Below are positions 1-3,000 of a stretch of DNA of 6,988 bases, in pieces. The position numbers were made by a program. Origin of the DNA: a virus (lineage: Duplodnaviria; Heunggongvirae; Uroviricota; Caudoviricetes). Each line of letters starts with the position of its first letter. The stretch's first letter is position 1. The DNA lies in IMG/VR virus record IMGVR_UViG_2778261541_000002, positions 1-6,988 of that record. One strand, 5' to 3'.

Positions 1-3000
1 GGCGTTTACGGCTTGTTGGGCTTGTTTAATCCAGTAACTGCGGGGCTTTAAGGCGAGTTTTTGAATCTTAAGTTTATCGTTCTGTTTCTGCTCCTCTCGT
101 CGTCGTTTCTTCTCTGCTGCCTTTTCTGCCTTTTCCGCTTTTTCGCGTTCTTTGCTTCGTCGTTCGAGTGCTATCTTGGTTCCACACTCTGGAGAGCACC
201 ACCACTGATTAGCGAATGCAGGGTGAAACCATTCCCGACATTCATCGTTTTTACATCGTCTTCGCGCTGGTTTAGCCATCATCTTCTTCCTCGTGCATCG
301 AGCTATTCGAATCGCTCATCAGCTCTGCGCAGCAGTGCTCACACACGTGAACTTCCAGCACATGCAGCTTCTGACCGCAGTTAGCGCACGTTAAAGCTCG
401 CTCGACGCTTTCTTGTTCGTAACTTCGATTTTGGTCAATCACCTTGTTTTCCTCGCACAATGTCTTAGCCACCGGATATCCCACAGGTGAGCCGTGTAGT
501 TGAAGGTTTTTACGTCAGATTCTTTTGGGATTGGCTTGCGTTTATTTCTGGAGCGTTTCGTTGGAAGGTAATCGGACTTATGTCTGATGCCATTCCGAAA
601 GCACACAAGACCGAAGCAATAAATCTCCAGTCCGTTCTGCTTATCTTCGATTCATGACAGCCAATCATCTTTGCCAGACCGCGCTGGGTAATAGCTGACA
701 GATTGATAAGTAAATCTGTTTCTGCGCGATCAACGTCACGCTGTGATAGTTTGCTGTAACTTGTTCTTTCCATTTCTTAAGATTTCCAATAGTGAATAGT
801 TAGTTGAAAGGTATGCGTGGAAACGCATATGGCCTTAGTTGGTCAGATATCTTGGAACTCGCTTTTCAGCGACGTAGGACGAATGTCCGTTGTTACAAAG
901 AGCGGATCCGCTTATTAAGCGGCTTTATGTTCCGGCGGGAACACGTCATCAAGACTGACTTTTGCGCCTAACTTGTTTAGGCATGCAACAAGAGCACGGC
1001 ATGTTTTAAGGTCTGGGAAGCGACGACCAGATTCCCAATGTCCGATAGCTCCCTGTGTGCATCCAACTGCCTTAGCAAGTGTTGTTTGAGAGATATTCAG
1101 TGACTCTCGATATTTTCGTAGGTTGCTCATATGCCCTCCATAGTAAACACGAATAAAAATACAATATGTACTTTAAGAATACAAGTAAAAATACACATTG
1201 TGCATGGATGGTTCCAGTACAAAGCGTAATAATAAGGACATGAAAATGAAATGGTATGAACTGGCTAGATCCAGAATGAAAGAGCTCGGCATAACTCAAG
1301 AGAAGTTAGCCGAAGAGCTAGGTATGACGCAGGGTGGGATTGGACACTGGTTGCGCGGATCTCGTCATCCATCTCTTAGTGATATTGGTGTGGTGTTTAA
1401 ATACCTTGGTATTGATAACATATCATTCAACCACGACGGGACATTTTCACCTGTTGGCGAATACTCATCGGCCCCAGTTAAAAAACAATATGAGTACCCT
1501 GTTTTTTCTCATGTTCAGGCTGGGATGTTCTCTCCAGAACTCAGAACCTTTACCAAAGGCGATGCGGAGAGATTGGTAAGCACAACCAAAAAAGCCAGTG
1601 ACTCTGCATTCTGGCTTGAGGTTGAAGGTAACTCAATGACCGCACCAACAGGTTCCAAACCCAGCTTTCCTGACGGGATGTTAATTCTGGTTGACCCTGA
1701 GCAAGCTGTTGAGCCCGGCGATTTCTGCATAGCCAGACTTGGTGGTGATGAATTTACCTTCAAGAAACTGATCAGGGATAGCGGTCAGGTGTTTCTACAG
1801 CCACTAAACCCACAATACCCAATGATCCCATGCAATGAGAGTTGTTCCGTTGTGGGGAAAGTTATCGCCAGCCAATGGCCTGAAGAGACGTTTGGGTGAT
1901 GAAACCACTTTTATCTACAATTTACAGGGCGGTAAACATTGGCAAAAATAGATGATTATCAGCCAAGCCAAGTAGAAGTTGATAAAGTACTTTATTGTAA
2001 AAAAATAGTTAACTTTTCTGGCGTTAAATGGAAACAGAAACCAAGTCGCTCTGATATGTGGCTACAAGCTCATATCATCCCCTTGGATGAGGATTGTATA
2101 CCTATACAAGGGCTAAAGTTTGAACTGAAATGGAAACCAGATCAGGATTCAGAACCTGATGACCCGATTTCTTACCCTAAAATAAATATTATTGCTTTCT
2201 ATCATAACAAGAGGGTTTTCGCGGTAGATACCTATCACTTTGACAAACACACGAATAGTTACAAGGTCGATCATCCGAAGTACCAAGATATCATTTACGG
2301 TGCTCACTACCATGTATACTATGAAGAAGCTGGATACTATAGTGATAGAATAGCGTTTCCAATCGAAGATGACATAAACCCAGATGACCTGGTAGGGTAT
2401 TGGAATTACTTCTGTAAACATCTGAACATAACTTACTCTGGGAGAATACCTTTACCGCTTGAAGATGAGTCGGGGCAAATGGGGTTTGGAATATGATGTG
2501 CTCAACAGTGATCTCACAACTAGGTTTCGAATGCCATCCAATAGGCAAGACCTTGAGAATTATCAGTCCATTCACTTACTGTGATGATGGAGAGCATGTC
2601 GGTGCCTTTATCCGTGAAGTCAATGGTAGGTATTTAGTTAGTGACAGATGCGATGCCTTAATGAATATGGAGGCAAGAGGGATCTCGCTTACCAAAAAAC
2701 GACTTGATGAGATACGACAATTACTGCTTAAAGAAGGCGCAGAACTCAATGCTCGAGGAGAAATCATTGCTTGGGCAACAGAAAAGGATGTCGGTGCGAT
2801 TACATCGAACATAATTAGAGCTGGTATACTCGCATCAACTTTGTCGTTAGACTGGTATCAGCCAGTTCAAGCTGAAAAGTTTGAAAGTATGGTTATTGAT
2901 TATCTATATCACACAGAGCTTAGAGACGCACTTTCTCTTCGTGAAAACGTATATGGCTTGAGTGGACATCAAATTACCGTCCCTGTAACAATAAAAACCG

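Follow-up and report, generated by a model that had tools for sequence, protein, structure and literature searches.

Lambdoid repressors in which a lambda-like C-terminus follows a divergent N-terminus have been recognized before: Fattah et al. (2000) had noted this pattern, according to a 2023 paper (PMC10742460). Phage epsilon34 has the same domain pattern, with VT2-Sa named as a relative of its N-terminal domain (NTD) (PMC2629481), and CI clade I has been described as well (PMC8951638). The "hair-trigger" paper (PMC5977221) yielded no mention of Sakai or of mosaic or chimeric repressor domains, and in the PA2/PA8 paper (PMC10810198) the cI repressor appears in general background only. Compared with the repressor studied here, those of the Salmonella P22-like phages epsilon34, SPN9CC, and g341c (together with phage L-type NTDs) are collinear over their full length, with an equal linker length, an MKM(K/N)WY start, and 48–52% identity in the NTD and 80% in the C-terminal domain (CTD). 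They nevertheless differ in belonging to a separate immunity type, with the recognition helix TKGAVSHW in place of TQGGIGHW, a Cro of about 40% identity, and a CTD that is not lambda-identical. Phages 434 and P22 (c2) share with this locus an HTH_3-type repressor NTD and a homologous Cro that read the same operators, along with a self-cleaving S24 C-terminus, but their sequence similarity is remote (phmmer E = 0.25–0.47 to NTD structures).

We compared these systems with the cI locus in a 6,988-nt stretch of viral DNA (the window; Table 1), and found that its CI is the same protein long known as the CI of VT2-Sakai and many E. coli phages, such that the mosaic structure described below is itself already known. 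An earlier sequence-only reading had stated that it would be refuted if the same full-length repressor were identified in a well-known phage, which it was. From MKMKW to the stop there is 100% protein identity to a Stx1-converting phage (Morioka V526), to ev207, and to the phage 2851 entry, while the VT2-Sakai (Sp5) CI matches except for an amber codon in the HTH in record AP000363, and the cI DNA is 98–99.4% identical in Stx2 phage II, 1717, YYZ-2008, and the PA-series. The same repressor is found in the non-Stx lambdoids ev207, ev017, 2G7b, and PhiR57_1, at least 1000 public contigs carry its exact sequence, and its NTD (residues 1–83) is 100% identical in more than 50 phage records. The VT2-Sakai/Stx-phage group also shares the gene order cII-cro-cI and a Cro that is 100% identical in VT2-Sakai and the Stx1 phage. 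Among the operators, OR1, OR2, and OL1 are identical in the relatives, and OR3, OL3, and OL2 carry 1–2 mismatches to Stx phages and 0–1 to ev207. Differences from the Stx-phage group comprise one OR3 base change, which reads as Lys instead of Glu in a 5′ extension that is probably not translated, and the genes 3′ of cI, where a DUF6978/DUF1828 pair is absent in Stx phages and present in ev207-type phages. Judged by its matching repressor, Cro, and operators, the locus belongs to the VT2-Sakai/Stx2-II/ev207 immunity type. From this assignment one can predict the Stx and non-Stx lambdoid phages to whose superinfection the host would be immune.

Table 1. Coordinates of the cI locus features within the window.
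Feature	Position	Strand	Details
cro	915..1130	-	71 aa; Pfam HTH_3, E = 4e-12; recognition helix TQGAIGHW
OR1 (AAATACAATATGTACTT)	1157..1173		Nearest cro; same sequence as the AP005153 operator annotation and the VT2-SA OR1 oligo (PMC10742460 supplement)
OR2 (AAATACACATTGTGCAT)	1189..1205		Contains ATG 1204; centre 43 bp upstream of ATG 1240
Putative PRM	1205..1233	+	-35 TGGATG 1205-1210, -10 AATAAT 1228-1233; inferred
OR3 (CAGTACAAAGCGTAATA)	1215..1231		Overlaps putative PRM -10; 1 mismatch to Stx1-phage/VT2-Sa OR3
cI CDS, likeliest extent	1240..1899	+	219 aa; alternative ATG 1246 gives 217 aa; from ORF list
N-terminal DNA-binding domain and non-lambda part of linker	1240..1488	+	Residues 1-83; HTH at about 17-37; recognition helix TQGGIGHW
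Mosaic junction with lambda cI	1485..1492	+	blastn boundary 1489; sliding identity
Lambda-type segment: distal linker, cleavage-site region, S24 C-terminal domain	1489..1899	+	Residues 84-219 = lambda 101-236
Autocleavage site Ala94-Gly95	1519..1524	+	GCT GGG; = lambda A111-G112
Leu112 (TTG)	1573..1575	+	Lambda Trp129 (TGG); sole amino acid difference in shared segment
Ser132, catalytic nucleophile	1633..1635	+	Aligns with lambda S149
Lys175, general base	1762..1764	+	Aligns with lambda K192
Terminator hairpin closing cI operon	3249..3270	+	Within 122 bp sharing 90% identity with lambda 35826-35708, just downstream of rexB
OL region	3417..3491		OL3 3417-3433, OL2 3450-3466, OL1 3475-3491; 2.26 kb from OR

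BLASTP against lambda CI (J02459) aligned residues 84–219, counted from ATG 1240, with lambda residues 102–237 in Met numbering (101–236 in the numbering used here), 135 of the 136 positions being identical. The sequence-only reading had placed the start of the match at about residue 80 with a single W-to-L difference, and the protein is indeed identical from residue 84 on except for W129L. At the nucleotide level, lambda 37637–37226 aligned with window 1489–1900 at 93.4% identity (blastn; 27 mismatches, no gaps), with 26 synonymous codon differences and one non-synonymous (dS = 0.37, dN = 0.003); the dN/dS of about 0.008 indicates extreme purifying selection on the C-terminal segment. This near-identical segment includes the end of the linker, the Ala111-Gly112 site, Ser149 and Lys192, and both the dimer and the tetramer interfaces of lambda CI, and matches the solved structures PDB 3BDN, 8GMU, 2HO0, and 1F39. 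In contrast, only 17 of the N-terminal 83 residues (about 20%) are identical to lambda, with residues 12–83 giving a weak BLASTP alignment that needed a 4-residue gap, and phmmer with the NTD matched 1LLI and 1LMB, structures of the lambda repressor NTD, weakly (E = 4.5e-4 to 3e-3). The acidic residues of helix 2 (E21 and E25) do match lambda E34 and D38, but lambda's N-terminal arm and long helix 1 are missing and the linker is 4 residues shorter. Relative to lambda CI, the protein is thus, by alignment, a genuine domain mosaic in which the linker, the cleavage site, and the S24 domain are of lambda type and are joined to a non-lambda HTH of the HTH_3 family, in line with what had been claimed for its N-terminus.

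Lambda homology starts at nt 1489 in codon 84 (Tyr, lambda Tyr101; residue 96 in the numbering of a 231-aa ORF discussed below), which lies in the inter-domain linker 10 residues before the Ala-Gly site, and blastn detected no lambda homology to the left of this position. In an ungapped, stop-anchored alignment, 30-nt segments displayed 13–37% identity upstream of about 1470 and 83–100% from 1485 on, with identity falling from about 93% to background over about 10 nt at 1489. Uniform divergence from lambda CI, which the sequence-only reading had named as a check, is ruled out by this step, and the sharp junction is consistent with its proposal that the gene was created by recombination inside cI. 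From these alignments, we concluded that cI is, relative to lambda, the product of an intragenic exchange at the domain linker, and that this exchange is old, given the dS of 0.37 in the shared part.

We also considered an account without recombination, in which selection for new immunity drove rapid diversification of the DNA-binding domain and the cleavage domain remained frozen. Rates do differ between the domains in the VT2-Sa/epsilon34 family (48% NTD and 80% CTD identity between the window and SPN9CC), and the purifying selection on the CTD is extreme, as such an account would have it. Unequal rates would nonetheless have to produce a drop to background within about 10 nt, and to place a shared part that is only moderately diverged beside an NTD region in which nucleotide homology is undetectable and indels are required. 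Furthermore, the CTD alleles do not follow NTD class, with the lambda-NTD phage ev099 being equidistant from the window and from lambda, and lambda homology stops exactly at the cI stop codon, making the shared part a 412-bp island. We disfavor this account, which seems barely credible in light of these comparisons, and regard cI here as a clean textbook case of module exchange at a domain linker within a phage repressor gene.

A donor with the same NTD on another CTD was not found among the NTD matches, in that all those of at least 95% identity carry a lambda-type CTD; the next relatives, in Salmonella phages (SPN9CC, ST64T-type), are only about 52% identical, and so no donor can be named. 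Reuse of the modules was apparent in the P22-like phages 683R2 and 720R6, which carry the same NTD with a CTD that has Trp129, and in Lambdavirus PDP110P1, which has a third NTD class on a lambda CTD with a more distal junction. In these alignments, the lambda-type C-terminal module is common to at least three N-terminal classes.

The gene had been given an extent of 1204–1899, which is the longest ATG ORF (231 aa) and the one with the start used in GenBank-style annotation. Its end stands, but ATG 1204 lies inside OR2 and upstream of the putative PRM, so that translation probably begins at ATG 1240 or 1246 instead. SPN9CC, the Salmonella homologue, carries an in-frame stop codon 8 codons upstream of its corresponding MKM start. 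That the 231-aa start, widely copied in databases, falls in an operator is of modest practical value for annotation. Pfam identified an N-terminal HTH_3 domain at residues 11–58 (E = 1.9e-10; 41 bits, cutoff 23) and Peptidase_S24 (PF00717) at residues 87–209 (E = 1.1e-28; full-length profile match). With its HTH, its S24 domain containing a Ser/Lys dyad, and an Ala-Gly in the linker, the predicted protein has the features of a LexA/lambda-CI SOS-cleavable repressor, and the alignment of Ala94-Gly95, Ser132, and Lys175 with lambda bears out what had been said of the cleavage site and the dyad context. RecA*-stimulated autocleavage would be expected from the 135/136 identity to a lambda segment in which cleavage is established, and SOS-inducing agents are predicted to derepress this prophage.

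The strings quoted in the sequence-only reading, including CTQGAIGHW in Cro, were all found in the window, and the recognition segments of Cro and CI are nearly identical, as it had noted (TQGAIGHW and TQGGIGHW). Cro and the repressor NTD are paralogous HTH_3 domains, sharing 35% identity across 62 aa (E = 9e-13). This differs from lambda, whose Cro has a fold unlike that of HTH_3-type Cro. The operators, too, are unrelated in sequence to those of lambda and more widely spaced: the half-site of the six 17-bp sites is AArTACA, compared with TATCACC in lambda, and the spacings are 32 and 26 bp in OR and 25 and 33 bp in OL, compared with 24 and 23 bp. The core TACAnnnYGTA is confined to OR and OL (4 matches vs 0.29 expected), the OL sites differ from the operators annotated in AP005153 by 0–2 mismatches, and the operator proposed for epsilon34 (WTACRAWWTGTAT) resembles this core. 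The 1131–1203 fragment that had been suggested for OR binding assays would cut OR2 and omit OR3. The 43-bp placement of the OR2 centre upstream of ATG 1240 is like that of lambda OR2 relative to PRM. Lambda's rexAB is replaced in the window.

A generic sigma-70 scan of 1050–1300 and 3240–3650 called no sigma-70-like sites at the expected PR, PRM, and PL, and the promoter assignments therefore rest on position, on AP005153, in which a "putative maintenance promoter" is annotated at the position of the putative PRM, and on SPN9CC, which has a conserved TATAAT-N6-ATG layout like that of the putative PRM and cI start. A CII-type TTGC-N6-TTGT box was present at 751–764, inside cII at its 5′ end and oriented toward cI, in a PRE-like position.

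Taken as a whole, we are confident that this mosaic CI is the maintenance repressor of a lambdoid prophage of the VT2-Sakai/Stx2-phage-II/ev207 immunity type. CI dimers would bind the three sites in OR and the three in OL, unlike those of lambda, and would thereby repress PR (cro) and PL (N), while occupancy of OR2 would activate a weak PRM, giving a leaderless cI message predicted, as in lambda, to start at or near A1240. The C-terminal domain, being that of lambda, would be expected to support pairwise cooperativity, looping between OL and OR across 2.26 kb, and RecA*-stimulated cleavage at Ala94-Gly95 as it does in lambda; with operator spacings that differ, lambda-style pairwise cooperativity is assumed here. 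Cro, as a paralogue of the CI NTD, would compete for the same operators.

The sequence-only reading had also proposed an immunity specificity unlike that of lambda. This fits the operator sequences, and is partly contradicted by a report that VT2-Sa and lambda show cross-immunity (Fattah et al., 2000, cited by PMC10742460). While the NTDs of true imm-lambda phages (SfI, ev243, and ev099) are identical or near-identical to that of lambda, the NTD here is not, the six operators have AArTACA half-sites rather than being of the TATCACCGC type, and Cro is of the HTH_3 type; blastn of the window against lambda revealed no homology to lambda OR or OL.

The reported cross-immunity fits poorly with fully distinct operator specificity.

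Heteroimmunity to lambda might be incomplete, with the repressor overlapping lambda immunity functionally through residual recognition-helix similarity or through mixed oligomers of the identical C-terminal domains; we consider this unlikely. Beyond the cross-immunity itself, such overlap would agree with the correspondence of Gln20 and Gln31 to lambda Gln33 and Gln44, and with EMSAs in which lambda CI bound all six VT2-Sa operators with KDapp values of 3.7–6.4 µM (PMC10742460); of four VT2-Sa oligos in the supplement of that paper, three are identical to sites in the window and OR3 is one base off. However, these affinities are 10- to 25-fold weaker than those of lambda CI for its own OR1 and OL1 (0.21–0.35 µM), and they are similar to those for unrelated Stx2-I sites (PMC10742460), such that the binding may be near non-specific. 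The lack of resemblance between the half-sites and the low NTD identity also argue against overlap, and exclusion functions such as Rex or SieB could mimic immunity.

Since the dimerization and cooperativity domain is essentially identical to that of lambda, it is conceivable, if doubtful, that lambda-immunity and VT2-Sa-immunity repressors present in one cell could form heterodimers or mixed tetramers or octamers, coupling two heteroimmune switches. If so, mixed oligomers might underlie the cross-immunity of Fattah et al., or might instead cause mutual destabilization and co-induction, and they could account for the frozen C-terminal sequence across N-terminal classes.

The prophage around the repressor is incomplete: O, P, ren, and ninB are absent from the window, cII breaks off at about codon 68, with a fusion to ninE at nt 569/570, and bet is truncated, with homology ending at 6840. 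With the surrounding prophage deleted, the repressor may guard only a defective element. These losses would also be in keeping with cI being a decaying, non-functional remnant, which we nonetheless judge very unlikely: the cI ORF is intact, encoding a protein with 100% identity to the one in phages that form plaques or can be induced (ev207, Stx1 phage, 2851), and Cro and five of the six operators have an unaltered counterpart in at least one intact relative. Moreover, a defective prophage in which kil and N are still present would be expected to retain its repressor.

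The repressor encoded by cI combines two parts that relate very differently to lambda CI. By BLASTP, residues 84–219 (numbered from the ATG at 1240) are identical to residues 102–237 of lambda CI (Met numbering) except for a single Trp-to-Leu change, and residues 12–83 aligned weakly and required a 4-residue gap; the acidic residues of helix 2, lambda E34 and D38, have conserved counterparts here in E21 and E25. When the genes were aligned without gaps from the stop codon, identity in 30-nt windows was 13–37% up to about 1470 and 83–100% from 1485 on. The transition is thus step-like, with no gradient, and uniform divergence from lambda CI was ruled out. 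Homology begins with TATGAGTACCC at nt 1489, and the junction falls at codon 84 (Tyr; lambda Tyr101), in the inter-domain linker and ten residues upstream of the scissile bond. Pfam assigned HTH_3 to residues 11–58 and a full-length Peptidase_S24 match to 87–209. In a PDB search, the C-terminal part matched the lambda repressor structures 3BDN, 8GMU, 2HO0, 1KCA, and 1F39, while the N-terminal 83 residues gave weak matches only (E about 1e-4 to 1e-2), lambda's own N-terminal domain (NTD) included. The predicted cleavage and catalytic residues all have lambda counterparts (Table), and apart from W129L the C-terminal domain (CTD) aligns as identical to lambda's dimerisation and cooperativity domain. 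Cro is a paralogue of the CI NTD (35% identity across 62 residues, E 9e-13), with TQGAIGHW against TQGGIGHW in the recognition segment. The sequence-only reading had proposed this architecture, namely a lambda-type cleavage domain with its Ala-Gly site, Ser/Lys dyad and one W-to-L difference, joined to a DNA-binding domain that is not lambda's and nearly shares its recognition segment with Cro, and our alignments bear it out.

The gene had been placed at 1204–1899, which is the longest ATG ORF and has the same start in many GenBank and RefSeq records. The stop at 1899 stands, but ATG 1204 lies inside OR2, and OR3 would sit within the resulting "coding" extension. Moreover, a -10-like AATAAT (1228–1233) and TGGATG (1205–1210) occupy the position of the "putative maintenance promoter" of the Stx1-converting phage (AP005153); with a putative PRM start at about A1240, the cI transcript would be leaderless, like the one from lambda PRM. 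Salmonella phage SPN9CC keeps a TATAAT-N6-ATGAAAATGAA arrangement; because a stop interrupts its reading frame eight codons upstream, translation there can begin only at the codon equivalent to ATG 1240 or to ATG 1246. For these reasons, we take the coding sequence to be 1240 (or 1246)–1899, giving 219 or 217 aa. On longer transcripts of the PRE type, ATG 1246 would be served by an AAGGA at 1234–1238, and a CII-type box (TTGC-N6-TTGT) was found at 751–764, inside the 5′ end of cII, where expected. A generic promoter scan called none of PR, PRM, and PL, so the promoter assignments are ones we infer.

The cI region (1130–1899) was matched over at least 80% of its length by 62 phage records, at 99.4% identity in PhiR57_1, PhiR63_2, ev207, and ev017, and at 98.2–98.6% in 2G7b, Stx2 phage 1717, YYZ-2008, the Stx1-converting phage (AP005153), Stx2 phage II (AP005154), and the PA series. 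At the protein level, CI of the Stx1 phage and of ev207 was 100% identical to the window's from MKMKW through to the stop, and VT2-Sakai CI (AP000363) differed only by an amber codon in the HTH. The window's Cro was likewise 100% identical to that of known phages. All three exact CI versions (217, 219, and 231 aa) were present in a collection of 15 billion proteins, two of them on at least 1000 contigs, in a cluster of 1686 members; the 219-aa form carries the name "repressor protein CI [Enterobacteria phage 2851]". A lambda-like C-terminus and divergent N-terminus in VT2-Sa CI were described by Fattah et al. (as cited in PMC10742460), and this CI, found in Eru2/Eru3 phages with VT2-Sakai among them, has been assigned to "clade I", with an overall identity to lambda CI of 61% (PMC8951638). 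The same domain pattern has been described for epsilon34, with VT2-Sa given as an NTD relative (PMC2629481). Together, these phages and published accounts mean that the mosaic was already documented. The sequence-only reading had itself named the occurrence of this full-length repressor in a well-known phage as a refutation, and that is what we found: on sequence identity the window protein is nothing other than the CI already known from phages of the VT2-Sakai/ev207 immunity type. In AP000363 the amber stands in place of Gln31, within the recognition helix (MT*GGIGHW), because of which cI is annotated there as an ORF of 510 bp; either an error in sequencing or a genuine mutation could account for it.

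The Stx1-converting phage has six annotated 17-mer operators, and all six could be located on the window with 0–2 mismatches. They have in common the half-site AArTACA and the core TACAnnnYGTA; the window holds four copies of this core, all in OR or OL, against 0.29 expected (0/200 shuffles reached four). With one mismatch allowed, 7 of 11 matches to ATACAnnnYGTA fell in the six operators (OR1 counted on both strands). Within OR, neighbouring operator centres are 32 and 26 bp apart, and within OL 25 and 33 bp, a wider spacing than lambda's, with 2.26 kb between OR and OL; the OR2 centre lies 43 bp upstream of ATG 1240, near lambda PRM geometry. In sequence, the sites are wholly unlike the TATCACCGC-type operators of lambda. 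The VT2-SA oligos OR1, OR2, OR3, and OL1 in the supplement of PMC10742460 (Genes 2023) are reverse complements of the window sites, with one OR3 mismatch. That article gives a KDapp for lambda CI of 3.7–6.4 µM on six VT2-SA operators vs. 0.21–3.1 µM on lambda's sites, and cites Fattah et al. for VT2-Sa/lambda cross-immunity.

Features of the window, in window order
Feature	Position	Strand	Remark
ninF/ninE remnants			first in window order
cII, truncated	510-773	-	
cro	915-1130	-	71 aa, HTH_3
OR1	1157-1173		17-mer match
OR2	1189-1205		17-mer match
OR3	1215-1231		17-mer match
cI		+	
Lambda block	1489-1900		93.4% identity to lambda 37637-37226, the 3′ 412 nt of cI
Ala94-Gly95, scissile bond	1519-1524		lambda A111-G112
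Leu112 (TTG)	1573-1575		lambda W129; only replacement
Ser132	1633-1635		lambda S149
Lys175	1762-1764		lambda K192
Two ORFs	1939-2496 and 2493-3245	+	
Lambda block	3249-3370		90% identity to lambda 35826-35708, just downstream of rexB
OL/PL region	near 3417-3491		
OL3	3417-3433		17-mer match
OL2	3450-3466		17-mer match
OL1	3475-3491		17-mer match
N-family antiterminator	3610-3954	+	
sieB	3971-4552	-	
ral/ea10/cIII/kil/gam/bet			lambda-like; last in window order, after sieB
Lambda block	4573-6840		97.6% identity

The six cognate operators thus lie on either side of the cI operon. By analogy with lambda, CI dimers on OR and OL would repress PR and PL, OR2-bound CI would activate PRM, and the CTD would provide cooperativity and OL–OR looping; SOS induction would proceed by RecA*-stimulated self-cleavage at Ala94-Gly95. 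We consider it quite improbable that the lambda-type and VT2-Sa-type switches are functionally coupled via their common CTD.

Across the 136 codons shared with lambda, 26 differences are synonymous and 1 is non-synonymous (dS 0.37, dN 0.003; Nei-Gojobori), which indicates that the exchange was not recent and that the C-terminal protein sequence is very strongly constrained. CTD alleles do not track NTD class: the CTD of ev099, a lambda-NTD phage, lies at much the same distance from the window (dS 0.20) as from lambda (dS 0.19), and the P22-like 683R2 and 720R6 combine this NTD (96% aa) with a Trp129 CTD at dS 0.34–0.48 to both the window and lambda. No donor with this NTD on another CTD was found; every NTD match of at least 95% has a lambda-type CTD, so none can be named. 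The window protein aligns collinearly over its full length with repressors of the SPN9CC type (48% in the NTD, 80% in the CTD), and for this reason the VT2-Sa type seems to belong to that family; alternatively, it may equally be lambda that has the swapped-in NTD. Lambdavirus PDP110P1 (OZ035751, locus L010; unannotated) joins a third NTD class to a lambda-identical C-terminal core, and since lambda identity starts further along, its cI mosaic junction is a different, more distal one.

The 6988-bp window belongs to a lambdoid prophage, whose immunity and early-left region it carries in the orientation opposite to the standard lambda map, and blastn against lambda (J02459) returned only three homologous blocks. 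E. coli prophages cover nt 1–6840 at 99.9%, split over two or more pieces. At about nt 569/570, within the stretch 439–773, cII is cut at about codon 68 and joined to mid-ninE; compared with ev207 and E. coli prophages, ~3 kb with O, P, ren, and ninB is absent, so the prophage is replication-defective. E. coli Z1323PEC0011 has a similar, though not identical, deletion. Bet is also truncated, with homology to lambda and all relatives stopping at 6840; the last 148 bp (6841–6988) match DNA ~3.9 kb further on in E. coli RIVM_C040753, adjoining IS100 (IS21-family), which suggests a second deletion or rearrangement at 6840/6841.

Between the cI stop and a terminator hairpin (3249–3270), two overlapping ORFs (185 and 250 aa; 1939–3245, + strand) occupy the lambda rexA/rexB position, lambda homology ending at nt 1900 and returning at 3249. 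In PADLOC they matched a candidate defence pair, PDC-M24A (E 5e-4) and PDC-M24B (E 6e-10); the Pfam matches were DUF6978, below cutoff, and DUF1828, and the PHROGs were 2017 and 1960 (unknown function). The two genes probably form an exclusion or defence cassette that is co-transcribed with cI from PRM. The pair also occurs in ev207 and many E. coli prophages, and is absent from Stx phages with the same cI. The 114-aa N ORF is probably overstated at its 5′ end, because N is a 273-bp gene in RefSeq annotation. A boxB-like hairpin, GGCTGAAAAGCC, lies at about 3573–3586 (stretch 3565–3600), after OL1 and ahead of N, which would fit nutL, and the only Rfam family at gathering score was Lambda_thermo, the cIII RNA thermometer (5577–5635, + strand; 88.5 bits).
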